A stretch of 64,000 bases of DNA from an uncultured virus (IMG/VR IMGVR_UViG_3300042868_008532). Its lineage: Duplodnaviria; Heunggongvirae; Uroviricota; Caudoviricetes. The DNA is taken from the IMG/VR virus record IMGVR_UViG_3300042868_008532, positions 1 through 64,000 of that record, one strand, 5' to 3'. The position numbers were made by a program, and so were the translations under genes. The notes under the pieces are model-generated. The model was not told the origin of the DNA. It did no database searches and saw only the letters and a program-made list of their open reading frames with translations. This document shows positions 5,388 to 63,929 of the stretch, piece by piece. The first letter of the stretch is position 1; every line of letters starts with the position of its first letter.

Positions 5388-6608
5388 ATGAAAGAAAAAA
5401 TAAATGTTTTAGTTCTCGCGTCAGATAAAACAGGCGTAGGGAAATTCAGGTCTTTAGACCCACATATTAAGTTACAAAATCTATATCCTGACGATTTCCA
5501 CGTTGATATTGATTATGAACCAAGAATAAATGATATAAAGTATTGGGATAAATACCAAATAATCCATGTGCATCGAAATATTGGTAGTCACTATGACCAA
5601 ACACCATCAATTGTTAAATATTTAAAATCAATTGGTAAAGTGGTTGTTATTGATATTGATGATTATTGGTTACCAACTATTGACCATCCAATACATAGTA
5701 TTATTGTTCAAAATAAAATTCACGAGAAAATTGTCGCAAACTTAAAAGAAGCTGATTGGGTTACAACCACAACTGACATATTCGCCAATGAAATTCGTAA
5801 AATCAATAAAAATGTTTTGGTATTACCAAACGCTATTGACCCTAATGAACAACAATTTAATCAACCAACACCACCGTCAGATAAAATCAGAATTGGTTGG
5901 TTAGGAGGGTCTTCACATTTACACGATTTAAATTTATTAGGTGATTTCGTTCAAAAGAATCAAGACATTAATGATAAATTACAATATGTAATTTGTGGGT
6001 TCGACACAAGAGGTTCTGTAACTGAAATTAATCCACAAACAGGTGAACAAAAGAAAAGAGATATTCTTCCACACGAAACTGTATGGGTTAATTATGAGGG
6101 TATCTTTACAAATAATTACAAAACATTAGATGAAAATTACATTAAATTCTTAAAGGAATTTAAAGAGAATGAATATATTTCAGATAAAGAATTACCATAC
6201 GTTAGAGTTTGGACAAAACCGGTTAATTCTTACGCTATGAATTATTCAAAATTTGATATATCTTTGGCACCGATTAAAAATCACATCTTTAATAGAATGA
6301 AATCTCAATTAAAAGTAATTGAGGCAGGATTCTATAAGAAAGCATTAATTGCGTCTGAAATTGGACCATATACTATAGATTTAAAACATTGTTTAAAAAA
6401 TGGGGTATTCACCGACGAAGGAAATGCGATTTTAATCCCTGAAAGTAGGAACCATAGTGATTGGTCTAAATCAATTAAAAAATTAGTTCAGAATCCTGAA
6501 ATGATAACTGAGTTAGGAGAGAGATTATATAATACCGTAAAAGACAAATATGACCTTAATAAAGTAACGGTTACAAGAGCGGAGTTTTACAAAAGTTTAA
6601 TCAAATAA
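5388..6608 (+). CDS. Glycosyltransferase, GT-B (GT4-like)
   Basis: DIDDYW, IGWLGGSSH, DISLAP..FN..KS.LKVIEAG motifs. Confidence 0.8.
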   Translation: MKEKINVLVLASDKTGVGKFRSLDPHIKLQNLYPDDFHVDIDYEPRINDIKYWDKYQIIHVHRNIGSHYDQTPSIVKYLKSIGKVVVIDIDDYWLPTIDHPIHSIIVQNKIHEKIVANLKEADWVTTTTDIFANEIRKINKNVLVLPNAIDPNEQQFNQPTPPSDKIRIGWLGGSSHLHDLNLLGDFVQKNQDINDKLQYVICGFDTRGSVTEINPQTGEQKKRDILPHETVWVNYEGIFTNNYKTLDENYIKFLKEFKENEYISDKELPYVRVWTKPVNSYAMNYSKFDISLAPIKNHIFNRMKSQLKVIEAGFYKKALIASEIGPYTIDLKHCLKNGVFTDEGNAILIPESRNHSDWSKSIKKLVQNPEMITELGERLYNTVKDKYDLNKVTVTRAEFYKSLIK

Positions 6609-6618
6609 AAAACAAAAA

Positions 6619-7329
6619 ATGATAAAAATACCTTTAACTAAAATATTATTTTTAGATATAGAAACTGTTGGAATTGAAAAAGATTATGACACTTGTTTAG
6701 AAAAGAGACCTGAACTCGCTAAACAATTTGACAAATATTACGATTGGTTTTTAAAACGATTTCCTGAAGATAAGGAAATTGAAGTTAACCAAAAAAATAC
6801 AGTGTTTGCAACAAGAACAGCTTTAGTTCCTGAATTTGCAAAAATTGTTTGTATGAGTGTTGCGTTTGTAATGGATAATGGAGATATAAAAAAAACAACC
6901 TTTTCCGGAGACAACGAAAAAGAGGTATTAAAAGAATGTCAAAAATTATTAGACCGTTGTGGTAAATTAGATTTTTTTCTATGTGGACATAATTTAAAAA
7001 ACTTTGACATTCCAATGACAGCTAAAAGAATGATTATTAATGGATTATTACCCCCATCAATTCTACCTTCTTACGATACAAAGCCGTGGGAAATCAAAGC
7101 TATTGATACTAGAGAAATTTGGCAATATGGTGCTTATACAGCGATTGGGTCATTAGACTTGATGTGTACTTCAATGGAAGTTCCATCACCAAAAGAGGGT
7201 GAAGTTACCGGAGATAAAGTACACGACGCATATTGGAACAAAGATATGTTAGAAGAAATATCTGCATATTGTGAACGTGACGTATTAGTCTTAATTGACA
7301 TAATAAAAAAATTAAAAGAATTAGAATAA
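6619..7329 (+). CDS. 3'-5' exonuclease, DnaQ/PolB-exo-like
   Basis: ExoI FLDIET, ExoII GHNLKNFDIP, ExoIII YCERDV. Confidence 0.85.
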   Translation: MIKIPLTKILFLDIETVGIEKDYDTCLEKRPELAKQFDKYYDWFLKRFPEDKEIEVNQKNTVFATRTALVPEFAKIVCMSVAFVMDNGDIKKTTFSGDNEKEVLKECQKLLDRCGKLDFFLCGHNLKNFDIPMTAKRMIINGLLPPSILPSYDTKPWEIKAIDTREIWQYGAYTAIGSLDLMCTSMEVPSPKEGEVTGDKVHDAYWNKDMLEEISAYCERDVLVLIDIIKKLKELE

Positions 7330-8009
7330 TGTTTAACGAAGATTTAGATTTTTTAAAAAACAAAGCGGAAGAATTAAAAAAATTAGCGAATATTGATTTA
7401 GATGATTTAAGTTATGATGATATAATGAGTGAATTTGGTTTGGATTTAAAACAACTTGAAGAAGATATGTTAAATTCAAAAACAAGATTACCATTAGGAT
7501 TTGTAAAAATTCATCCCGACGCAATAACCCCGAAATATAATTATGATAGTGATTCAGGTTTTGACCTACATTCTGTTGAAGATGTTACCATAGAAGCTTT
7601 CGGTCGAGCGTTAGTTCCTAGCGGACTATCCTTTGATATTAAAGATGGATATGAGATTCAAGTTAGGACTAAAAGTGGTTTAGCCATTAATCAGGGTCTT
7701 ATGGTTTTAAACTCACCTGGAACTGTGGATTGTTTTTCAGAAGATATGAAAATACTAACAATTAAGGGTGAAAAAACGATAAATGAATTAAATCTTAATG
7801 ATGTTATCTTTTCATTTAATGAAAAGACATTAGAAATTGAAAAAGATATTATTACCAACATTTTTAACACGGAAGAACAGGAAATAATTGTTTTTGAAAC
7901 TGACAATGGAATATTAGAGGTTACACCTAATAGTGAAGTTTATACTAAAAGAGGGTTATTGTTGGCTAAAGATGTGAAAGAAAATGATGAGATTATTGTT
8001 TTTTATTAA
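7329..8009 (+). CDS. dut: dUTPase N-terminal part fused to the N-half of a split intein (IntN 7731-8006)
   Basis: dUTPase motifs SGFDL, RTKSGLA, NSPGTVD, then intein block A CFSEDMKILT and block B EVTPNSEVYT..G; ORF ends after 92 intein residues. Confidence 0.9.
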   Translation: MFNEDLDFLKNKAEELKKLANIDLDDLSYDDIMSEFGLDLKQLEEDMLNSKTRLPLGFVKIHPDAITPKYNYDSDSGFDLHSVEDVTIEAFGRALVPSGLSFDIKDGYEIQVRTKSGLAINQGLMVLNSPGTVDCFSEDMKILTIKGEKTINELNLNDVIFSFNEKTLEIEKDIITNIFNTEEQEIIVFETDNGILEVTPNSEVYTKRGLLLAKDVKENDEIIVFY

Positions 8010-8045
8010 CCTGTGTAATATTTATCAATAAAGATAAAGGGTATA

Positions 8046-8930
8046 ATGGTAAAATGTTTAATTTGTGGGGTAGAAAAAAAATGTTCAATTGTTGAACATT
8101 TAAAATTTGTACATCAATTAAAATCTGATGAGTATAAAAAAATGTTCTTTGGTTCAAAAGTTAAATCAGATGACGAACTATTAAAAATGTCGGATAGAGC
8201 CAAAAAAAATTGGAGTAGTCCTGAGTATAAAGAATCTCAAATTAAAATTAGAAAAATTACACATCAAGACCCAATTTTTAAAGAAAAGATGTCTGAAACT
8301 TTAAAGAAAAAACATAAAGAAAATCCGGAGTTATTCACAGGATTTACTCAATGGTCTAAAACTGAGAAATATAAAGAATGGGTTATATCAAAAGAACGAA
8401 CAGATAAAATATCTAAAACTAGTAAAAAAAGATGGGAGAATGACGAATATCGAGAAAAAACCATCAATTCTATTAAGAAATCATTAAATGATGGAAGGTG
8501 TGATAAATCGTTAGAGTTTAGAGAAAAAATGTCAATAATTATTTCAAAATTATATGCAAATGGTACAATATCTAACGAATCAAATAAATATAAAACAGGT
8601 AAATATAATTCAAAAACAAATGAGGTATTTTTATATTCCTCATCATATGAATTGGAATCTATGGTATTATTTGATGATTCCAACAATATAAAAAGTTGGA
8701 CTAATAAACATGGAATTAGAATTAAATATTTTTATAATAATTTAAATAGAAATTATGTTCCCGATTTTTTAGTTGAGTTTATAAATGGAGTTACTTATAT
8801 TATTGAAATGAAAGGATGGAACACTGAAGAGGTTGATATTAAAGAATATTACACAAAAAAAACATACCCTAACTATAAAATATTCTATAGTGTTAACGAA
8901 TTAAAACAATTTATAAATGAAAACAACTAA
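8046..8930 (+). CDS. Free-standing putative homing endonuclease (C2H2 finger, NUMOD3-like repeats, TnsA-like PD-(D/E)XK nuclease)
   Basis: CLIC...HLKFVH; repeated K..MS helical motifs; YSSSYE...YVPDFLVEF...IIEMKG; lies between the two intein halves. Confidence 0.75.
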   Translation: MVKCLICGVEKKCSIVEHLKFVHQLKSDEYKKMFFGSKVKSDDELLKMSDRAKKNWSSPEYKESQIKIRKITHQDPIFKEKMSETLKKKHKENPELFTGFTQWSKTEKYKEWVISKERTDKISKTSKKRWENDEYREKTINSIKKSLNDGRCDKSLEFREKMSIIISKLYANGTISNESNKYKTGKYNSKTNEVFLYSSSYELESMVLFDDSNNIKSWTNKHGIRIKYFYNNLNRNYVPDFLVEFINGVTYIIEMKGWNTEEVDIKEYYTKKTYPNYKIFYSVNELKQFINENN

Positions 8931-9222
8931 AATACTTAAAATTTCAAAAACAAGAAAACAAACTTATGATATTACCGTTGAAAATAATCATAATTTTTTC
9001 TGTAACAATCATTTAATTCATAATTGTGGTTATACCGGAGAAGTTAAAGGAATTATATTTAACACCAATAATCATCCTGTAACAATAACTAAAGGAATGA
9101 AATTTGGTCAAGCGGTGTTGTGTCCCGTTGTAAATGGGGGTTGGGTTCATTTGGACCAAAGAGACAAAGTTACAGATAAAGAAAGAGGTGATAATGGGTT
9201 TGGCTCAACAGGATTAATATGA
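8917..9222 (+). CDS. dut: Split intein C-half (36 aa, 8917-9024) fused to dUTPase C-terminal part
   Basis: Blocks F/G TYDITVENNHNFFCNNHLIHN, then Cys+1; CGYTGEVK, GQAVL and ERGDNGFGSTG complete dUTPase motifs 3-5. Confidence 0.9.
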   Translation: MKTTKILKISKTRKQTYDITVENNHNFFCNNHLIHNCGYTGEVKGIIFNTNNHPVTITKGMKFGQAVLCPVVNGGWVHLDQRDKVTDKERGDNGFGSTGLI

Positions 9223-10727
9223 TAACAGTAATATACTCAACACATAAAGATGAACAATATAATAACAAATTTAAACAACATTTGTTACAAACCGTTGGTT
9301 TAAAAGACGTTCAAATTTTAGAATACAAAAACAATAATGAATTTAGTTTGGCTGAGATTTACAATAAAGGTATTTCTCAATCAATTTTTGATATTGTAAT
9401 TTGTTGTCATAACGATATCAAATTAGAAAATGGTTGGGGAAAAAAATTATTAAAAGATTTTTCAAATAACCCTGATTATGGGATTATTGGAAAAGCCGGT
9501 TCTTGTTATTTTCCTGAATCAGGGGTGTACTGGGAACGTATGCAACAAACAATGGTGGGACAAGTTTATCACCATCCCGATGGTCAAAATAAATGGTTAA
9601 GTAAATATTCTTTAAAATTACCATATTTAATTCCAGTAGTAACTATTGATGGGTTATTTATATCATTTGATAAAACAAAAATTAATCATCAATTTGATGA
9701 AACAATTGGAAGATTCCATTTTTACGACCATTTATTCTGTATTCCTAATTATATAGATGGTATTAAAATTGGTGTAACATCTTCTTTTGAAATTACACAT
9801 CAGTCCGTTGGGAGACCGAATCAAGAATTTTGGGAAAGTAAAGATAAATTTATTGAAAAGTGGGGAAGTAATTTGCCATTAGATTTAAAACCTGAAAAAA
9901 TTTACATTCCTGAAATAAAAGAAAAACCAATTAAGAATATTGGTAGAGTTGCGGTTATAATCCCAACCAAAGGAAATGTTGAAATGTTAAAAGAATGTGT
10001 TGATTCATTTTACAATTATTGTAATTCTGAGTTATTTGATATTTTTATTGCGGACACCGGTTCTACGGATGATGAAAAAGAAATATTAAAAAACAATATA
10101 AAAAATTATAACAACATAAAACTAATTGAGTACGATTACTATAATTTTTCAAAAATTAATAATGATGTTGTAAAAAATCACGTAACAAATAAACACGAAT
10201 TTTTATTATTCTGTAATAATGATATTAAATTATTAAATAATGTTATTTATGGAATGTTAAATATTTTTAAAACAACACCCAAAGTTGGTACCGTTGGGTG
10301 TCGACTTCATTTTGAAGATAATACTATTCAACACAACGGTGTTATTTTAGCTATAAATTCAAATAATATTTTTAATATTGGTCATGAAAATTTTAGTTGT
10401 TACTATAATTATATAATAAATAAAACAGAGGTTATTGGAAATACTGCAGCACTGATGATGATTAAAACAAATATATTTAAAGATAATGGTATGTTTAATG
10501 AGAATTATCTTGAGTGTTTTGAAGATGTAGAATTAAATTTTAAATGTGTAATAAGTGGATATAAAAATTATATGTGTGGTGATTTAGTTGGTTATCATTA
10601 TGAAAGTAAAACTAGAAATAACGATAACAATAAATTAACAAAACAAAACGAAGATTACTTAAAAAGATTATTACCATTTTTAAATAAAAATTATCTTAAA
10701 CTATTAAAACTAATTAAAAAAAATTAA
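9219..10727 (+). CDS. Two-domain GT2-family glycosyltransferase
   Basis: N-domain CCHNDI/FHFYD; C-domain VIIPT, DTGSTD, FCNND, FEDVE. Confidence 0.8.
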   Translation: MITVIYSTHKDEQYNNKFKQHLLQTVGLKDVQILEYKNNNEFSLAEIYNKGISQSIFDIVICCHNDIKLENGWGKKLLKDFSNNPDYGIIGKAGSCYFPESGVYWERMQQTMVGQVYHHPDGQNKWLSKYSLKLPYLIPVVTIDGLFISFDKTKINHQFDETIGRFHFYDHLFCIPNYIDGIKIGVTSSFEITHQSVGRPNQEFWESKDKFIEKWGSNLPLDLKPEKIYIPEIKEKPIKNIGRVAVIIPTKGNVEMLKECVDSFYNYCNSELFDIFIADTGSTDDEKEILKNNIKNYNNIKLIEYDYYNFSKINNDVVKNHVTNKHEFLLFCNNDIKLLNNVIYGMLNIFKTTPKVGTVGCRLHFEDNTIQHNGVILAINSNNIFNIGHENFSCYYNYIINKTEVIGNTAALMMIKTNIFKDNGMFNENYLECFEDVELNFKCVISGYKNYMCGDLVGYHYESKTRNNDNNKLTKQNEDYLKRLLPFLNKNYLKLLKLIKKN

Positions 10728-11287
10728 TGATAACGTTTTTAGCAACAGCATATAAAGAGACAACAGATTCTTATCAATTTATAAGTTCTTTAATATTACA
10801 ACAAAACCCAAATTGGGAGTGTATAATTCATTGTGATGAAAAAAATGAATATCTTGAAAAGTGTGTTAATTTTTTTAATTCGGATAAAATAAAAGTGATA
10901 TATAATGAAACACCAACGTCTTATTGGGGACATTTTAACCGAAAAAATACATTAGAATTAGTGAGTACTGAGTTTGTAATTCAAACGTCTATTCAGGACT
11001 ATTATACACCTAACACCGTAAGTGAATTATTGTCAAATTTGACTGATTGTGATATGGTTATGTATAATTGTATCCATAACCATTTTAATTATAATGTGTT
11101 AGACTCTACACCTATTAGATGTAGAATTGATTGGGGTTCATTTGTCATAAGAACAGACATAGCCAAAAAAGTGGGGATTAATCATCCTGAATCACCATTT
11201 TGCGATGGTATTTTTGTTGAAGAATGTTTAAAACATCCAAATATAAGAACGAAAAAAATAAATAAAATATTAACTGTACATAATTAA
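10727..11287 (+). CDS. GT2-like glycosyltransferase
   Basis: Q.NPNWECII, IDWGSFVIRT, DGIFVE, terminal VHN. Confidence 0.65.
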   Translation: MITFLATAYKETTDSYQFISSLILQQNPNWECIIHCDEKNEYLEKCVNFFNSDKIKVIYNETPTSYWGHFNRKNTLELVSTEFVIQTSIQDYYTPNTVSELLSNLTDCDMVMYNCIHNHFNYNVLDSTPIRCRIDWGSFVIRTDIAKKVGINHPESPFCDGIFVEECLKHPNIRTKKINKILTVHN

Positions 11288-12277
11288 ATGAAGATATCGA
11301 TTATTGGAACAGGGTGGGTTGGATGTCATTTGTCTAATGTGTTAAAAAACGAACACGATGTCACGCTATATGAAAAAAATGACAAAATATTTAATGGCAC
11401 TTCTTACTATAATCAAAATAGATTACATTATGGTTATCATTATGCGAGAAACTACGAAACCAGAAATTTGTGTAAAACAACTTTTTATAGGTTTATAAAC
11501 GACTATGGGTTTTGCGTGACCGATATTGATAAAAACTTTTATTGCGTACCTAAAAAATTATCTTTAATTGATTTAAACACATATTTAAAAATTTTTGATG
11601 AGTATCCGTCTGAATTAACTTCCCATAATTTTAGTAATACTGAAGGATGTATTTTAACAAATGAAAAACATATTAATTTTAAAAAAGTTAAAAATTATTT
11701 TCAAAAAGAATTAGATGGGTTAATAAAATATGAAACAATAGATAATGTAAAATTAGAACAACTATCTAAAAACTCGGATTTAGTTATTGATGCGACAAAT
11801 AATTTTATGGGATTAATAAATACTGATTTTTTTTATGAGTTAACCATAACATTAATTTATGATAAAATTAAATCAACTAATTTCGATTCTGTGACATTTG
11901 TTGATGGTGAACTATTTTCTATCTACCCTTATAAAGATAATAAGTTTACATTAACCGATGTTAAATTAACACCATTAAAAAAGTTTTCATCAGTTAATGA
12001 AATCGATGAATATAAAAAATTAATAAATGATGAATTTATTTTAAATAAAATTAAAGAATTTGAAAATCGAGTTATGACATTTATGCCGGAATTCAACGAA
12101 TACTTTAAATATGACTCTTATTTTTTATCAATAAAAAGTAAAGTAAATGATGAGTCGGATAGTCGATATCCAGTAATAAAACAAACAAACAATATAATTT
12201 CATGTTTTACCGGAAAAATACAAGGAATTTATATTATTGAGGATTATATTTTAAACATAATTAATAATGACAAATGA
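11288..12277 (+). CDS. FAD-dependent oxidoreductase
   Basis: IIGTGWVG Rossmann motif; TS..NQNRLHYGYHY; FTGKI. Confidence 0.8.
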   Translation: MKISIIGTGWVGCHLSNVLKNEHDVTLYEKNDKIFNGTSYYNQNRLHYGYHYARNYETRNLCKTTFYRFINDYGFCVTDIDKNFYCVPKKLSLIDLNTYLKIFDEYPSELTSHNFSNTEGCILTNEKHINFKKVKNYFQKELDGLIKYETIDNVKLEQLSKNSDLVIDATNNFMGLINTDFFYELTITLIYDKIKSTNFDSVTFVDGELFSIYPYKDNKFTLTDVKLTPLKKFSSVNEIDEYKKLINDEFILNKIKEFENRVMTFMPEFNEYFKYDSYFLSIKSKVNDESDSRYPVIKQTNNIISCFTGKIQGIYIIEDYILNIINNDK

Positions 12278-35769: not shown

Positions 35770-35792
35770 TTTAAATGTTTTAATAATAAATA

Positions 35793-36550: not shown

Positions 36551-37290
36551 AGATTTTCTTTTAAACTTTTAAGTTTAAAATAAGTCAACTTGTCGTATTT
36601 CTCAGATATCACTTTTGTAAGTGTTTCATCAATCCTACCTTTCACTGAATTATCTTCAGATGACTCTTTCATTGCATTTAATTTATCAACCACACTTTCT
36701 TTAAGAGTGTTAAATTTAATTGATAATTCTTTATCATCTTCAGACAACAATTTAACAATTTCTTTTTTATCAGACTCACTTAAACCATCAATATAATTTT
36801 TAATGGTTTTGTTTGCAACACTAACCATAGTTGATAATGGAAGTTCAATACCTTTAGTTTGTATAACCGGTATTTTTTTTAAATTTTCTAAAATTAAATT
36901 TTTACTTTTAAGTCTTGATTCAATAGTTAAAACATCTGTTGAAAATAGGTTGTCAATGTTTTCATATGAATTATTTGATTTCGTATTTTTAACCCATGTA
37001 TTTAATTTTTTTAAATCTGCCGGTAAAATTTTATTAACAGCATTTTCATATAGAGTAATACATTCATGGATGTATTCTCTTGAATATGAATCATTCAAAC
37101 CTTTTCTAGTGTTTAATTCATCATACATGTAGAAAATTTTACTAACATTTTTATTTTCTAATACAAGTTTTTTAAATGTTTTTAATTCGTCTTTAAATGT
37201 ATCGTTTTTATACGATTCAAGTAATACGTTTTCTATCTTCGATTTTAATATTCCAAACTTTGTCATTTTCTTTTTAATTATAAATATCAA
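36547..37290 (-). CDS. Hypothetical head-module protein (start probably 37266)
   Basis: ORF downstream of the portal gene with TATTTATA just upstream of MTKF. Confidence 0.65.
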   Translation of the reverse strand: MIFIIKKKMTKFGILKSKIENVLLESYKNDTFKDELKTFKKLVLENKNVSKIFYMYDELNTRKGLNDSYSREYIHECITLYENAVNKILPADLKKLNTWVKNTKSNNSYENIDNLFSTDVLTIESRLKSKNLILENLKKIPVIQTKGIELPLSTMVSVANKTIKNYIDGLSESDKKEIVKLLSEDDKELSIKFNTLKESVVDKLNAMKESSEDNSVKGRIDETLTKVISEKYDKLTYFKLKSLKENL

Positions 37291-39884: not shown

Positions 39885-39904
39885 TTATGTTTATTTGATA
39901 AATA

Positions 39905-48810: not shown

Positions 48811-50859
48811 ATGACAGAACCTATGGATGGTGGAAGTAACGGTGGAAATAATAAATCAGTTAAGACTGATTCATCAACACCTGTATTAGACAATTTTAGT
48901 AGAGACCTTATTAAATTAGCCGAACAAGGAAAACTTGACCCGGTAATTGGTAGAGAAAGGGAAATCACTAGAATTGCTCAGATTCTTTCACGTAGAAAGA
49001 AAAATAACCCAATCATTATTGGTGAACCTGGTTGTGGTAAAACAGCAATCGTTGAAGGTCTTGCCATTATGATTTATAATGGGGAATGTCCAAGAAACTT
49101 AATGGACAAACGTATCGTATCATTAGATATGACATCAATTGTTGCCGGAACCAAATATCGTGGACAATTTGAGGAAAGAATGAAAGTTATCATTGAAGAA
49201 CTTCAAAACGAACCTAACATTATCGTATTCATTGACGAAATCCACACAATAGTTGGTGCAGGAAATTCATCAGGTTCAATGGATGCGTCTAACATCTTTA
49301 AACCAGCACTTGCTCGTGGTGAGATTCAATGTGTTGGAGCAACAACCTTAGACGAATATCGAAAAAACTTTGAGAAAGACGGAGCGTTAGAAAGACGTTT
49401 TCAAAAAGTTGTTGTGGATTCAGCAACCAAAGAAGAAACTTTGGAAATCCTTAAAAACGTAAAAGACAAATACGAGAACTTCCATAAGGTAACTTATACG
49501 GATGAAGTATTGTCTGTATGTGTTGATTTGGCTGACCGTTATATCACTGACAGAGAATTCCCGGATAAAGGTTTTGATATCATTGATGAAGTGGGAGCAA
49601 GAAGTCAAGTTGATATTAAGATGCCGGATTCAATTGAGAAATTGAAACAACAAGCGTCTGATATCAAACAAGAAAAGATTGATGTTGTAAAACAACAACG
49701 ATATGAAGAAGCTGCGAACTTACGTGATAAAGAAAAACGTATCTTAACCAAACTTGAGACTGAAAAGAAAAAGTTTGAAGAAGAACTTCTTACTCACAAA
49801 AAAGAAATCACATTAGATTTAGTTTATGAGGTTGTGTCTAACATGACCAAAATTCCGGTAACCAAATTAAATGCTGATGAGACCAAACTATTATCTGAGA
49901 TGGAGGCAAACCTATCTGATAAAGTTATTGGACAATCTGAAGCCGTTTCAAAGATTGCTAAGTCAATCCGTAGAAACAGAATTGGTATTAAGGACCCGAA
50001 CAAACCAATCGGTTCATTTATCTTCTTAGGTTCAACAGGTGTTGGTAAAACATACTTGGCGAAACAACTAGCAAAACAAATGTTTGGTAGTGAAGATAAT
50101 ATGATTCGTGTGGATATGTCTGAATACCAAGAAAAACACACCATCTCAAGATTAATTGGAGCACCTCCGGGATACGTTGGATACGATGAAGGGGGACAAT
50201 TAACCGAACAAGTGAAAAACAAACCTTATTCTGTAATTCTATTTGATGAGATTGAGAAAGCTAACAAAGATATCTTCTCAACACTTCTTCAAGTATTAGA
50301 CGACGGTCACCTTACCGATGGTATGGGGAGAAAGATTAACTTCAAAAATTGTGTCATCATTATGACCTCTAATGTTGGAGCTAAAAAATTACAAGATTTT
50401 GGTTCAGGAGTTGGTTTTAAAACCGGAACAAGCACTTATGCTGATGAAGAATACAAACGTGATGTTCTTAAAAAAGAACTTAAGAAATTCTTCACACCGG
50501 AATTCTTAAACAGAATTGATGAGGTTGTTATCTTTAACACCCTAATTAAAGATGATGTTAAGAAAATTGTGAAATTGGAATTAGACAAACTATCTAAAAG
50601 ATTAGTTGGTTTGAAATACGATATTACATTTGATGATACCATTTTAGACCTAATCTCTGAAGTTGGATTTGATGAGACCTACGGGGCTAGACCAATCAAA
50701 AGAGCAATCCAAGATAAAATTGAGGATTTTGTGTCCGAAGAAATTATCAAAGGAAATATGGTGGAGGGTGTTCCATACACCCTTATATCCGTAGAGAAAG
50801 AAGTGGTAGTTAAACCGGAAGTTGTTAAAAAGACAAGAAAGAAAAAAGAGGACATATAG
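48811..50859 (+). CDS. clpC: ClpC-like AAA+ ATPase lacking the N-terminal domain
   Basis: Two AAA modules ([16 protein letters not shown]), UVR/M-domain [14 protein letters not shown] ClpP-docking loop; starts directly at [11 protein letters not shown]. Confidence 0.9.
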
Positions 50860-53179: not shown

Positions 53180-53573
53180 GGGAGTGACACGGAATTGACT
53201 ATTCGTAATAGTTATTCGGGGCACGTAGTGAGATGTTCTCTATCACTTAAATCTATGGGTACAACAATTTAGACGGAAACGTTTTAAACAAAATGGCTCT
53301 AGTAGGTCTTGTACGTCAAGATGAGCTTGTGAACGTAGCGTAAGCAAACACACATTGGGGTCGGTGGACATATAACCCAGCAACAGGAGTCCTTAAAAAG
53401 GTGTGGTACCTATCCGAAAAGGTACAAGTGGAGGATTAGTTCTCAGTAAACCGAACCACTCTAAAAATAAGGGAATTGTGAAATTTTGGATTGTTAGCTT
53501 AAACAATATCCTAAACGTGTAGTCCTTAATAGGTAATACAAGTAACACCGGAGTTCGAGTCTCCGCACTTCCA
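53180..53573 (+). ncRNA. ssrA: tmRNA; tag ORF 53275-53343 (A)GNVLNKMALVGLVRQDELVNVA*
   Basis: 5' GGGAGTGACACGGAATTGAC; 3' T-arm CGGAG TTCGAGT CTCCG and CACTTCC-A; acceptor stem with G3.U Ala determinant; UA at -5/-4 of the GGA resume codon; smpB nearby. Confidence 0.92.
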
Positions 53574-53580
53574 CAAAAAG

Positions 53581-54953: not shown

Positions 54954-55106
54954 ATGAACCCAAGAAAAAAAGAAGAAGATAAAAAAGTAAAATTTGGAAT
55001 CTGTGTTGACCCGGTAATATACCAAAAAATGGAAGATGAGATGATTAACAAATCTCGCCTGATTGAAACACTATTGAAAGAACATTATGGAAAAAAAAGT
55101 TTGTAG
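54954..55106 (+). CDS. Small ribbon-helix-helix-like protein (absent from ORF track)
   Basis: MNPRKKEEDKKVKFGICVDPVIYQKMEDEMINKSRLIETLLKEHYGKKSL; overlaps the HNH start; TATTTATA at 54933. Confidence 0.65.
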   Translation: MNPRKKEEDKKVKFGICVDPVIYQKMEDEMINKSRLIETLLKEHYGKKSL

Positions 55107-55707
55107 TAAGTGTAAAGAAGAAAAAGAGGTTTGCGAGTTTGGGAAACGAAAAGATTCCAAAGATGGTCTGCGAAGTGAATGTAAAAGTTGTGCTAAAGAA
55201 TGGAGATTAAAGAATCGAGAACATTTATTAAAATATAATAAAAATTGGAAAAATTCTAATTCAGAACACGTTTATCATTATCATAAAAAATATAAAGAAG
55301 AAAATGATGAAGAATTAAAGAAATATCAAAAAGAATGGTATCTACAAAATAAAAATATTCTTAATGAAAAAATAAAACTAAAAAAATTAACAAACCCAAT
55401 ATTTTTAGTTTCGTGTTCAGTTAGAAAAAGAATGTCCGAGTATATTAAAAAAAATAATATATTGAAAAAAAATAAAACTTTTAAAGTTGTTGGATTGAAC
55501 CCTATTGAATTATCTCATTACTTGGAAACTCAATTTACAGAAGGAATGTCTTGGAATAACTATGGAAAGTATGGGTGGCATATTGACCATATAATTCCGT
55601 TATCTTCAGCAAAAAATGAAAATGAACTTTATAAGTTATGTCATTATACTAATCTCCAACCACTATGGGCAGAAGACAATCTAAAAAAATCAAATAAACT
55701 ATTATAA
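55087..55707 (+). CDS. HNH homing endonuclease with N-terminal Cys4 zinc motif
   Basis: CSKC...CKSC; WHIDHIIPLS...HYTNLQPLWAEDNLKKSN. Confidence 0.85.
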   Translation: MEKKVCSKCKEEKEVCEFGKRKDSKDGLRSECKSCAKEWRLKNREHLLKYNKNWKNSNSEHVYHYHKKYKEENDEELKKYQKEWYLQNKNILNEKIKLKKLTNPIFLVSCSVRKRMSEYIKKNNILKKNKTFKVVGLNPIELSHYLETQFTEGMSWNNYGKYGWHIDHIIPLSSAKNENELYKLCHYTNLQPLWAEDNLKKSNKLL

Positions 55708-55746: not shown

Positions 55747-56592
55747 GCTTAATACGATGAGAATACTCGTCTTATTGAGAATCTTCGGAAGGATTATTGT
55801 TTCCCTTCTTTTCCACCATCTTTTGAATGGTAATCCTCATTGCCGATTGGTTAGACCAATCACTCCTTAAGATATCATTTACTCTCTCATTATTCAACTC
55901 TCTTTAACCTTGCGAGCTAACTCCGGATTCGACTCCGTAGAGGTTTTTGGCGAGAATACATTCAGACTTGCGGTCATCCTGTGCAACGAACAGCTCGTTA
56001 CTATGTAGGCAACTTGTCAATGATACCTGACAGACACTTTTGCTTTTTTCTGTTTAGTTTTTCACCATATTGAAAATAGTTATTGTGTTGTGGATGTGTC
56101 CAAGTAGAGGTCTGTCTTAGGCTTCATCATCTTTTGGACGAAGAAATACCAACCTACTCGGTAGAGCGTCCCCACTCTCATATTTTAAGAATTCTTCGAA
56201 TCAAAATCTTGGTAGATGTTTGATAAGGATAATGACAGCACCACCTGTTACTTATCTTGTCTTTCGACTTTAAGATTTCTCTCATATTGGAACCCGTAAT
56301 AATTAAGTTGGATAACCTAACTTCTTACTTGATTCCTATCACTTATTCCTATTGGAGTTCCCCCCTCAACCGAAAGACCCACATCTCCCGGTCACCTAAC
56401 CACTTTCTCTAAAGCGTTGCCCTCAATACTGAAGGTCAGATGGTATGTGACTTGTATACTCGAGTCCCATTTCTGAGACCGCAAACCTGTTAACACAACA
56501 GATTCACTTTAGCCCGGTTTCCCGGTTTATTTAAGGATGATATACCACCCATTATCGTTTTTTACTCCACCGAAGTGGGTAAAGGATAATCT
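55747..56592 (-). ncRNA. Giant structured ncRNA, GOLLD-like (~850 nt)
   Basis: ORF-free, higher GC, many GNRA/UUCG-capped hairpins on the minus strand, own promoter (56635-56665) and terminator, next to tRNA-like genes. Confidence 0.65.
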
Positions 56593-56927: not shown

Positions 56928-57075
56928 ATAAAATTTGTAAACCCTTGAGAAGGAATCTGTGGGCGTGTATAGGATTACTTGTCTACCTTCTATCCATCCG
57001 GGTCTCTCACCCGACGAAACTTTACTACAAATAAATTCGTAGTTCCATCCCCCACCAAATTATGGTTTACTTTTG

Positions 57076-57165
57076 TGGTATCAGATGGGCTCGAACCACC
57101 GGCACAGAGTCTTTCGTTACTCCTGCTCTACCAAAGGAGATAAATCTCCACTGAGCTATAATACC
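57076..57165 (-). tRNA. Atypical tRNA-like gene (hairpin inserted in D-loop, 8-nt non-canonical anticodon loop)
   Basis: Acceptor GGTATTA/TGATACC, D-stem GCTC/GAGC, T-arm GGTGG TTCGAGC CCATC; anticodon not assignable. Confidence 0.6.
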
Positions 57166-57689: not shown

Positions 57690-57766
57690 TAGTCAGAACA
57701 GGATTCGAACCTGTGTGTCCACATAAGGGGTTTCCTTACCGTGCATCTCCAATGTGCTACCTGACT
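57690..57766 (-). tRNA. tRNA-like repeat unit 3 (no valid anticodon arm)
   Basis: AGTCAGG...ACAGG TTCGAAT CCTGT TCTGACT A. Confidence 0.55.
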
Positions 57767-58543: not shown

Positions 58544-58696
58544 ATGGGTAGACCTAAATTAAAAGAAGACGATAAAAAAGGTAAATTAGGTATAACAATA
58601 TCTAAAGAACTTATCAATAAAATAAACAAAATTACAAATAATAAATCATTATTTATTGAAGAATTAATTATTAAATATTTCAAGAATGGAGAATAA
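58544..58696 (+). CDS. Small ribbon-helix-helix-like protein (absent from ORF track)
   Basis: MGRPKLKEDDKKGKLGITISKELINKINKITNNKSLFIEELIIKYFKNGE; similar to 54954..55106. Confidence 0.65.
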   Translation: MGRPKLKEDDKKGKLGITISKELINKINKITNNKSLFIEELIIKYFKNGE

Positions 58697-59306
58697 AATA
58701 TGTTCTAAATGTAAAGTTGAAAAACTATTATGTGATTTTCATAATAATAAAAAAGAGAAGAGTGGTAAAAACTGTCAATGTAAAAGTTGTGTAAAACTTT
58801 GTTATAAATATATTAAAAAAATACCCATTATAAATTTAGAAGAATCTATTAAAAAAGAAAATTTAAGAAAATTAAAAAAAAGTGTGTATAATAAAAAGTA
58901 TCGTGAAGAAAATCGTGAAATATTAAAGAAGAAAAAAAATATTTATAAACAAATTAGGATAAATGAAAATCCTTTAGTTAAACTACGTTTTAGGATTTCC
59001 AATAACATAACTGTTTCGTTAAAACGAAATGGTGGTAAAAAATTAAGTAAAACTACTAATATTTTAGGGTGTTCTTTTGATGATTTTAAGAAACATATTG
59101 AATTATTATGGGAATCTTGGATGAGTTGGGAAAATTATGGTAACCCAAAAGATGGTATTTATCAACCAAATAAAACTTGGGATTTAGACCATATAACTCC
59201 ATCCTCAAAGGCAACATCTGAAGAAGAAATACTTAAATTAAATCATTATAGTAACTTTCAACCATTATGTTCTTATAATAACAGATTCATAAAAAAAGGT
59301 GACTAA
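58686..59306 (+). CDS. HNH homing endonuclease with N-terminal Cys4 zinc motif
   Basis: CSKC...CKSC; WDLDHITPSS...HYSNFQPLCSYNN; paralogue of 55087..55707. Confidence 0.85.
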   Translation: MENKICSKCKVEKLLCDFHNNKKEKSGKNCQCKSCVKLCYKYIKKIPIINLEESIKKENLRKLKKSVYNKKYREENREILKKKKNIYKQIRINENPLVKLRFRISNNITVSLKRNGGKKLSKTTNILGCSFDDFKKHIELLWESWMSWENYGNPKDGIYQPNKTWDLDHITPSSKATSEEEILKLNHYSNFQPLCSYNNRFIKKGD

Positions 59307-62866: not shown

Positions 62867-63193
62867 TTATTCTATTTTTTTTAAATTCTCTTCTAATCTA
62901 CTTAAGAATGATTCTTCACCATCATCACCTGATAACAACCAATCCACTCGTTGAGCGTATTCTTGAGCAATTTTAAGAGCTTTAACTGCATCTTTCATCT
63001 TCTCAATAACCTCATCCGGATATTTGTAATGGAATAAGTCCTCAGGGTATTTTTTATACCAATCAGGGTCAATCCAATGTTCTTTAAGTTCTTCCGGTGT
63101 TTTTTCTAAACCATTCTTCACAATAACCTCATCTATTTGGTCTGCGATGTAACCAATCTTATATTGGTTATAATCGAAATGCCCACCACTAAT
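62867..63193 (-). CDS. Hypothetical phage protein; frame is open from ATT at 63193 (ISGGHFDYNQYKI...), GTG at 63121 is the first standard start
   Basis: In-frame 24-codon extension upstream of the ORF-track call. Confidence 0.55.
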   Translation of the reverse strand: MSGGHFDYNQYKIGYIADQIDEVIVKNGLEKTPEELKEHWIDPDWYKKYPEDLFHYKYPDEVIEKMKDAVKALKIAQEYAQRVDWLLSGDDGEESFLSRLEENLKKIE

Positions 63194-63929
63194 GACTCAC
63201 TCTCCCATCTTTATTTATATTCATAGTTTTAATATAATTTTCGTTATTTATAATTTTACTAATATGTGATTGGTTAACACCATACATTTGAGCAATTTTT
63301 GTTTGACTTACCCCCTCTTTGTTCAATTTTTTTATCTCATTATAATCACATTCCTCTAACTTAACATATTGTTTTTTTCTTAAAGACAAATCTAAATCTG
63401 TTGCAATAGTTTTATATCTTTTCTCAATCAAAATCAAACCAATTGTTCTCCTACTTACAGAATATAAATCACTAATTTCTTTTTGAGTTAATTTATTTTC
63501 AATTAACAACAATTTTATCTCTCGAACTTGTTCCGGTGTTAACTTTTTTAAGGATGACTCATAATGTCCGTGAATTTTACCAACGTTAACACTTTTGTTT
63601 GAGGAGCCTATCTTATCTTTTGTGTCTTGTGACATATACACATAACCTTCCATTGATTTAGGTAAACGACAATTTAAACCTATTTTATTATCTAAACATT
63701 CATAAAATGTACCATAAAATAACTCCCGTTCTAAAAGAATTTCAATATCACATTCTTCAATAACTTCAAAAATGTGATTATCAACACCATATTTTACTAA
63801 CGAGTTATATAATTTAGTTTGACTATTACATCTTAATTTTTTATACCACTTCCAACGAGTATCAACATCTTTTGATGAACCGATATATACAAGACCTTTT
63901 GGACTTGTTATTTTATAAACTCCAATCAT
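63189..63929 (-). CDS. GIY-YIG homing endonuclease with C-terminal HTH repeats
   Basis: GVYKI...YIGSS..V..R; E.FY...N; NUMOD3-like MSQDTKDKIG; two HTH motifs. Confidence 0.88.
   Translation of the reverse strand: MIGVYKITSPKGLVYIGSSKDVDTRWKWYKKLRCNSQTKLYNSLVKYGVDNHIFEVIEECDIEILLERELFYGTFYECLDNKIGLNCRLPKSMEGYVYMSQDTKDKIGSSNKSVNVGKIHGHYESSLKKLTPEQVREIKLLLIENKLTQKEISDLYSVSRRTIGLILIEKRYKTIATDLDLSLRKKQYVKLEECDYNEIKKLNKEGVSQTKIAQMYGVNQSHISKIINNENYIKTMNINKDGRVSH

Follow-up and report, generated by a model that had tools for sequence, protein, structure and literature searches.

In an uncultured tailed phage (Caudoviricetes) from a lake, we found a dUTPase gene that is interrupted by the two halves of a split intein, between which lies a free-standing endonuclease gene. 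The DNA analyzed, referred to here as the window, comprises positions 1 to 64,000 of the IMG/VR virus record IMGVR_UViG_3300042868_008532. The locus is likely to be a mobile fractured gene, from which trans-splicing would restore a dUTPase of 199 amino acids. This fractured layout is already established, and three features are new relative to the searchable papers: dUTPase as the host, the type of nuclease and, most notably, a site-specific loss of the block B histidine of the intein. The record behind the window has 77,856 bases (30% G+C, completeness estimate 26%), and represents a tailed phage, as its genes include those for a major head protein, portal, head protease and large terminase, along with PhoH and RNA ligase. 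An identical copy of the split dUTPase locus on a 318-kb contig suggests a jumbo phage.

The locus contains three open reading frames (ORFs), all on the plus strand: ORF1 (7329-8009, 226 amino acids), ORF2, the endonuclease gene (8046-8930, 294 amino acids), and ORF3 (8917-9222, 101 amino acids). ORF1 and ORF3 are complementary dUTPase halves, given that the ranges of two dUTPase profiles that they match adjoin without overlap: Pfam PF00692 is matched at positions 3-64 of 129 by ORF1 and 71-129 by ORF3 (28.9 and 35.2 bits against a cut-off of 22), and PHROG phrog_135 at positions 130-226 and 228-290, respectively. ORF1 aligns with the solved dUTPase 8hrv (E-value 1.3e-23) through ...MVLNSPGTVD and then diverges, and ORF3 aligns with solved dUTPases from GYTGEVK to RGDNGFGSTG (E-value 7e-8). 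All five motifs (I-V) of trimeric dUTPases are intact across the two halves. The Asp of motif III is position -1 of the intein and the Cys1 codon stands at 7731, with the N-extein ending in NSPGTVD and the C-extein opening with Cys+1 and GYTGE. The exteins of 134 and 65 residues add up to 199, and the N-intein carries a net charge of -11, the C-intein one of +4. The endonuclease ORF is in the frame of ORF1, from which it is separated by two in-frame TAA codons and 36 nucleotides, and the end of the endonuclease ORF overlaps the start of ORF3 by 14 nucleotides in a different frame. An initial annotation of this DNA had described the same ORFs, extein and intein parts at these coordinates, an acidic N-intein with a basic C-intein, and a 199-residue product joined inside the catalytic motif, and every element is present where it was placed (Table 1). 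Its classification as a fractured gene also holds, as the locus combines a split enzyme, intein halves and a free-standing endonuclease gene between them.

Table 1. Parts of the split dUTPase locus, and further TATTTAT motifs in the window.
Feature	Position	Strand	Evidence
N-extein, dUTPase residues 1-134 (motifs I-III, end NSPGTVD)	7329..7730	+	PF00692, phrog_135, 8hrv alignment
N-intein, 92 amino acids, Cys1 (CFSEDMKILT...) to TAA stop	7731..8009	+	profile matches to DnaB/DnaX mini-inteins
Spacer, 36 nucleotides, promoter-like motif TATTTAT at 8019-8025 within ...ATATTTATCAATAAAGATA...	8010..8045	+	
Free-standing endonuclease gene, 294 amino acids: predicted zinc finger, helical repeats, TnsA-like PD-(D/E)XK	8046..8930	+	
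C-intein, 36 amino acids (MKTTKILKIS...NNHLIHN)	8917..9024	+	Intein_splicing, gp41-1 profile match
C-extein, 65 amino acids: Cys+1 (9025-9027), second half of motif III, motifs IV and V, stop	9025..9222	+	PF00692
TATTTAT, examples elsewhere	39898-39904, 37280-37286, 35786-35792	-	

On single sequences, the Pfam models PT-HINT and Intein_splicing score 18.1 and 10.4 bits on ORF1, and Intein_splicing scores 23.7 bits on ORF3 (positions 122-155 of 155, E-value 4.5e-5). The intein assignment made in the initial annotation is nevertheless borne out by profiles built from 16 family members, each a separate lineage, which give clear matches though the single-sequence Pfam scores are below their cut-offs. 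The N-intein profile matches the structures of Ssp DnaB (1mi8, E-value 1.1e-7), Spl DnaX (7cfv, 3.4e-7) and Npu DnaB (4o1r, 3.8e-7), and the C-intein profile matches gp41-1 (6qaz, 2.6e-7) over its full length. The 16 lineages agree without exception on Asp(-1), Cys1, Phe2 and the block B Thr in the N-half, and on D18, T20, N23-N30 (NNHNFFCN), H35, N36 and Cys+1 in the C-half, D18 and H25 being the block F Asp and His. Every lineage thus has the block A Cys1, block G His-Asn and Cys+1 nucleophile of class 1 inteins, and the invariance of these residues extends down to 42% N-intein identity. Because they are invariant, and the ratio of nonsynonymous to synonymous substitution rates (dN/dS) is low, we infer that the halves are ligated by protein trans-splicing. 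The 23 sequencing runs found include no listed RNA run.

The nearest relatives of the exteins are free of inteins. Identity in the N- and C-exteins is 96% and 95% for L022, 92% and 89% for L025, 90% and 91% for L032, and 89% and 88% for L034, and the flanks of all four are syntenic with the window at 84-88% DNA identity. The alignable sequence ends at 7730 and starts again at 9027/9028, with one AAT or AAC (Asn) codon replacing window positions 7731-9027; the L022-type site reads ...ACTGTTGAT AAT GGTTATACC.... In this comparison with intein-free dut alleles, which the initial annotation had suggested, homology breaks exactly at the intein boundaries. The +1 residue is Cys in every intein-bearing allele, and Asn or Ser in all 26 distinct intein-free alleles.

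These alleles were collected by scanning IMG/VR with the three proteins, which gave 141 loci; tblastn of the five parts and subsequent de-duplication yielded 51 distinct stretches, four of which are the window and its copies. Twenty-two stretches are fractured, three have both intein halves without the nuclease gene (L110, L112 and L119), and 26 are uninterrupted dUTPases. The fractured group includes the window and its identical copies, L009, L011, L014, L031, L033, L035, L040, L102 and L103, as well as the distant L105, L106, L107, L113 and L122, in which the N-intein is 40-47%, the nuclease 26-31% and the C-intein 56-72% identical. Besides the identical copies of the window, about 15 diverged viral lineages have the five-part layout; the nuclease frame relative to the N-intein varies among the lineages (0, 1 or 2), each half keeps its own stop and ATG, and both half-ORFs are open in every lineage examined. 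The family is large: its N-halves form at least 122 clusters at 90% identity and 51 at 50%, and 38 contigs are recorded as encoding a protein identical to ORF1. No second dUTPase is present in the 77,856-base record, where the Pfam intein model likewise matches only the split dUTPase locus. A search of GenBank phage DNA returned just one 89-base match, to two Bacteroides phages, and a search of GenBank phage proteins with ORF1 returned 307 ordinary dUTPases, none more than 60% identical and none covering 80% of the query. No cultured phage in that collection thus has this arrangement.

Comparison of cassette and exteins shows lateral movement. L009 and L031 share 81-100% identity with the window across the cassette but 42-72% across the exteins, and dS in the same two pairs is 0.06-0.73 for the cassette versus 0.99-1.7 for the exteins. 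In a tree of the N-extein (37 rows, with the window copies, four duplicates and any row of under 100 matched residues excluded), the window nests in a clade with four intein-free alleles (five rows; Shimodaira-Hasegawa-like approximate likelihood ratio test, SH-aLRT, 94). The intein state changes five times on this tree, compared with a shuffled mean of 9.5, and none of 500 shuffles gave a value as low. The simplest reading of these sequences is a gain of the intein by homing in the window's lineage, while other lineages may have lost it precisely. All parts of the cassette and the exteins are under purifying selection: over 12 pairs, dN/dS is 0.08-0.23 for the N-intein, 0.11-0.30 for the nuclease and 0-0.18 for the C-intein (two pairs undefined), and it is 0.06-0.46 for the exteins in 21 of the 22 comparisons giving a value, out of 24 attempted.

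The endonuclease has nine invariant residues among 19 sequences: C4, C7, H18, H23, E202, P239, D240, E254 and K256. The first four form an N-terminal C2H2-type zinc finger (with a weak Pfam ROS_MUCR match, E-value 0.026), and E202, P239-D240 and E254-x-K256 form a PD-(D/E)XK signature conserved in 19 of 19. An AlphaFold2 model has a mean predicted local distance difference test score of 87, and its best Foldseek matches are to TnsA of Tn7 (1t0f/1f1z, E-value 3e-4, probability 1.00, template modeling score 0.29-0.38) in the C-terminal domain, with Pfam Tn7_TnsA-like_N and DUF1064 matches below their cut-offs. The protein is thus modeled as a zinc finger, helical repeats and a TnsA-like PD-(D/E)XK domain, and the earlier PD-(D/E)XK assignment agrees with both the invariant motifs and the TnsA-like fold. 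No Vsr or GIY-YIG domain appeared among Pfam families at E-values up to 1 or among the listed Foldseek structures. Homologs fall in 79 clusters at 90% identity, none of which bears a name other than 'hypothetical protein', though a Phage_endo_I domain is precomputed for one. In IMG/VR, all 21 viral loci retrieved with this nuclease have it between dUTPase intein halves. Two cultured Bacillus phages have distant relatives (26-35% identity) as free-standing 'endonuclease' genes, one with a NUMOD3 annotation. Decay of the gene is also visible, as the nuclease frame of L107 is broken into pieces lying in different frames, and in L110, L112 and L119 all but its last ~29 codons are gone, with 65 nucleotides between the halves in L110. 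The intein halves of L107 and L110 are intact, with dN/dS of 0.03-0.09. Given that the gap in L110 still encodes the last ~29 codons of the nuclease, nuclease-free split inteins arise from fractured loci by deletion. Elsewhere in the window there are three further homing-type endonuclease genes: 206-amino-acid paralogs at 55087-55704 (+) and 58686-59303 (+), of endonuclease VII type (phrog_1035), which flank a GOLLD/tRNA region, and a GIY-YIG type gene at 63192-63929 (-) (phrog_7168/314).

The initial annotation had credited the endonuclease ORF with its own TATTTAT motif, which does occur upstream of the start codon, 20 nucleotides before it. Of the 13 other cassette lineages in the comparison, 11 retain the CTATTTAT-type core of the spacer (L035 reading CTATCTAT), among them L106 and L122, two of the four lineages with ~30% identical nucleases. 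Most of the nine nearer lineages also retain the fuller form CTATTTATCAATAAAGATA, and the spacer is just 5 nucleotides in L105 and L113. The bare heptamer is not enriched in the window (75 matches versus 63 +/- 8 expected, with 10 of 100 shuffles reaching 75). It does lie within 60 nucleotides upstream, on the same strand, of 19 of the 68 window ORFs, versus about two expected from its density, and ranks first of 21 heptamers of the same composition for placement before ORFs. Many of these 19 ORFs are virion genes, including portal, head protease and virion-module neighbors, and the extended motif before them, roughly ATATTTAT(A/C)(A/T)(A/T)TAAA, stands 4-30 nucleotides from the start. From this placement, TATTTAT is probably the phage's own promoter-type motif. 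The overlap between nuclease end and C-intein start is conserved across lineages (14-44 nucleotides), which suggests translational coupling of the nuclease and the C-intein half.

The most unusual property of the family is in block B of the N-intein. The window sequence reads T-P-N-S, with no histidine anywhere in its 92 residues, and in a profile alignment the family T-P-N-S/T aligns to T-A-N-H of DnaB and T-G-N-H of DnaX. The class 1 pattern T-x-x-H is thus lacking in the 16 lineages, where Thr is invariant and the His position holds Ser or Thr. According to the accessible text of PMC6333167, no other intein residue is conserved as highly as this histidine, which is essential in many inteins. 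When 1.84 billion representatives were searched with the profile, without restriction, 4,310 hits reached an E-value of 0.001 or lower, of which the best 150 were aligned (270 domains); the results that follow are for these 150. We defined as dUTPase-type those proteins with Asp(-1) and Cys1, of at most 260 amino acids, with the N-intein at the C-terminal end. There are 51, 46 of which also match a hidden Markov model of the family N-extein. Block B is T-x-x-T in 25, P-x-x-K in 15, T-x-x-S in four, T-x-x-Q in four, S-x-x-T in two and T-x-x-H in one (P0293), so that histidine is absent in 50 of 51. By comparison, the 219 domains of the 99 other proteins have His in 183, a gap in 24 and another residue in 12, and five of those 12 are short fragments resembling truncated dUTPase-type N-inteins. 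With 50 of 51 lacking the histidine versus 183 of 219 having it, the loss is specific to the dUTPase insertion site and near-universal there. The 18 longer proteins checked in this set belong to other hosts or contain multiple Hint domains. Related N-inteins also stand at the end of P0346, P0291, P0331, P0269, P0309 and P0327, which are N-terminal pieces of SAM synthetase, UvsW-type helicase, ribonucleotide reductase and PolIII alpha, and probably come from further fractured or split genes. SAM synthetase may be unreported as an intein host.

Why this histidine should be missing at one site is a matter for a more tentative proposal, which we put forward as possible but doubtful: the dUTPase-site split inteins may be a mechanistic subclass of class 1, in which the block B histidine was given up because of the insertion site, and the catalytic Asp(-1), or a clade-specific intein residue (Ser/Thr, Gln or Lys at the former His position), activates the first acyl shift. 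If true, extein-assisted catalysis would have evolved naturally and repeatedly at one site, and the family would supply split inteins able to accept Asp at -1, or even dependent on it. The sole small natural group without this histidine named in the accessible text of PMC6333167 is the Tko CDC21-1 orthologs, which are reported there to be active via a compensating residue; the statement on the CDC21-1 histidine was not found in PMC6801210. Like the dUTPase family, these inteins lack the block B His, but by their description they are archaeal, contiguous and in another host protein, and the -1 residue reported for them is Leu, as opposed to the invariant catalytic Asp of the dUTPase family. The accessible text of PMC6333167 has no data on Asp at -1. 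An active dUTPase family would be a second natural route around the block B histidine, the residue credited with driving the first step of splicing.

Taken as a whole, the sequence comparisons point to the following scheme. A cassette of ~1.3 kb occupies the dUTPase gene of the phage, immediately following the motif III catalytic Asp, in the order N-intein, stop codon, promoter-like spacer, homing-type endonuclease gene and C-intein. The two half-proteins would be made separately, the acidic N-intein pairing with the basic C-intein, and trans-splicing via Cys1, the C-terminal His-Asn and Cys+1 would join the exteins into the 199-residue dUTPase, with a Cys in place of the Asn of intein-free alleles. 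When phages co-infect a cell, the nuclease presumably cleaves dUTPase alleles that lack the intein, with repair copying the cassette into them; the placement of the nuclease between dUTPase intein halves at all 21 loci and the exact boundaries of the presence/absence polymorphism support this indirectly. Several observations weigh against this scheme. A residue called essential in many inteins is missing from the window N-intein and its family, and the Pfam intein models remain under their cut-offs on both halves. The well-supported branches of the tree alone force just one change of intein state, and a rise in identity toward the junctions between the window and L009 could reflect motif conservation instead of co-conversion. 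Lastly, the N-extein comparison of L106 and L122 gave a dN/dS of 0.99 (72 codons, saturated dS).

The absence of the histidine, together with the opposite net charges of the halves, would also fit intein halves that no longer splice but act as association domains, holding the dUTPase fragments together non-covalently, as the accessible text of PMC3045599 reports for a fragmented phage ribonucleotide reductase. We consider this unlikely, since none of the 16 lineages departs from Cys1, the terminal His-Asn or Cys+1, and the contrast of Cys at +1 in all intein-bearing alleles with Asn or Ser in all intein-free ones is difficult to account for without a requirement for a +1 nucleophile. Moreover, bulky intein halves retained inside motif III, just after its Asp, would probably obstruct the active site. 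The decay of the nuclease gene in some lineages might instead be read as a sign that a selfish insertion has inactivated the dUTPase and that the halves are decaying remnants. This is very improbable given the low dN/dS of the exteins in 21 of 22 comparisons and of the intein halves (0-0.23), the five intact dUTPase motifs, the half-ORFs open in all lineages examined, and a record that holds no second dUTPase. The initial annotation had itself named a continuous frame with assembly errors as an alternative, and ORF1 and the nuclease ORF do share one frame in the window. We give hardly any credence to errors of assembly or sequencing in what would be a contiguous intein with its endonuclease nested inside, or to a read-through or frameshifted product, because two in-frame TAA codons separate ORF1 from the nuclease, the nuclease and C-intein frames differ, and the frame relation is 0, 1 or 2 among lineages, with a separate stop and ATG for each half. 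In addition, one Logan contig from each of four lake-water runs, which may include the source sample, covers 7300-9285 with no differences and no gaps at a depth of 13-80, so that all four agree without an indel. A contiguous dUTPase intein is also not seen among the 120 listed N-intein relatives, none of which exceeds 241 amino acids, or among the longer proteins checked in the best 150 of the 4,310 profile hits, although such a form may occur among the others. Trans-splicing of a fractured dUTPase is thus the reading that we favor.

Fractured genes with split inteins and a free-standing endonuclease were described by Dassa, London, Stoddard, Schueler-Furman and Pietrokovski in 2009 (PMC2677866), whose hosts, in the accessible text, are gp41, IMPDH, DnaE, NrdA, NrdJ, ligase and terminase. 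The present locus shares with those genes a DNA- or nucleotide-metabolism enzyme broken at an intein, at the usual endonuclease insertion point; an intervening endonuclease gene with its own control element, overlapping the downstream half; and an occurrence mainly in phages from aquatic metagenomes. Its N-intein of 92 residues and C-intein of 36 are within the ranges given there (88-105 and 33-54). It differs in its host enzyme, dUTPase not being among those hosts; in its nuclease, which is a predicted zinc-finger TnsA-like PD-(D/E)XK protein versus GIY-YIG or Vsr-like enzymes; and in block B, as the 2009 inteins have the full set of five catalytic residues, one of which is the block B His (His82 by the numbering of DnaE) that the dUTPase family lacks. 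The same paper proposed, in general terms, that split inteins without a nuclease derive from fractured genes by deletion.

The initial annotation knew of no fractured dUTPase, and its absence among published intein hosts holds: the term 'dUTPase' has no occurrences in PMC2677866, and no dUTPase intein was found described in the searchable literature, most subscription journals and the intein registries lying outside that search, or in the accessible text of PMC7886860, PMC3868849 and PMC3868846. The best sequence matches among solved structures are gp41-1 (6qaz, 6riz) and the DnaB/DnaX mini-inteins (1mi8, 4o1r, 7cfv). These and the dUTPase family are alike class 1, with Cys1 and a terminal HN, but block B is T-x-x-H or S-x-x-H in gp41-1, DnaB and DnaX and T-x-x-S/T in the dUTPase family, and gp41-1 is only a weak match to the family N-intein (E-value 0.17-0.29). 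A case closer in function is the contiguous dCTP deaminase intein of cyanophage vB_AphaS-CL131, for which self-excision was shown experimentally according to the accessible text of PMC6293099. As in the window, a phage enzyme acting on deoxynucleotides carries an intein, and dCTP deaminase and dUTPase appear to be related, with a weak Pfam DCD match to the window C-half (E-value 0.014). Unlike the window intein, the CL131 intein (record MG209611) is contiguous, contains an HNH-type domain and keeps the block B T-P-D-H; by motif reading its site, after GKSTYAR, is ~15 residues upstream of the window's site.

Split inteins are tools for protein engineering, limited by extein dependence and cross-reactivity. 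In the dUTPase family, every member has its insertion immediately behind an Asp. If the dUTPase family is active, it would offer many diverged, probably fast-associating pairs to try. The set of loci also displays the life cycle of the element, from empty site through invaded site and decaying nuclease to nuclease-free split intein, and the occurrence of these stages in one gene family supports fractured genes as an intermediate toward clean split inteins. The TnsA-like PD-(D/E)XK zinc-finger nuclease would add to the types found in this role.

A second intein polymorphism was observed in the neighborhood of related loci. Just 5' of the dUTPase in L107, a RecA-like gene (L107 74-805) holds the end of an intein (...GILSHN|T...), and the homologous RecA-like gene of L110 (2171-3355) is intein-free, making this a presence/absence polymorphism in a neighboring gene. 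In the window itself, the 5' neighbor of the split dUTPase is a 3'-5' exonuclease gene (6619-7329), and the locus lies within a run of glycosyltransferase-like genes on the plus strand (5388-6608 and 9219-12277); the ORF at 9219-10727 matches Glyco_tranf_2_5 and Glycos_transf_2, and that at 5388-6608 has a weak GT1 match.

Further features of the window include a phage tmRNA at 53180-53576 (+), found by Rfam RF00023 (65.7 bits, gathering score 47) and given no call by ARAGORN, and an FtsH-like ATP-dependent protease of 682 amino acids at 48811-50856 (+) (phrog_4871, E-value 6e-241). A full-length GOLLD RNA is located at 55754-56161 (-) (Rfam RF02032, 306 bits, gathering score 150), in an ORF-poor stretch with tRNA genes at 57075-57165 (Thr, GGT) and 57690-57766.

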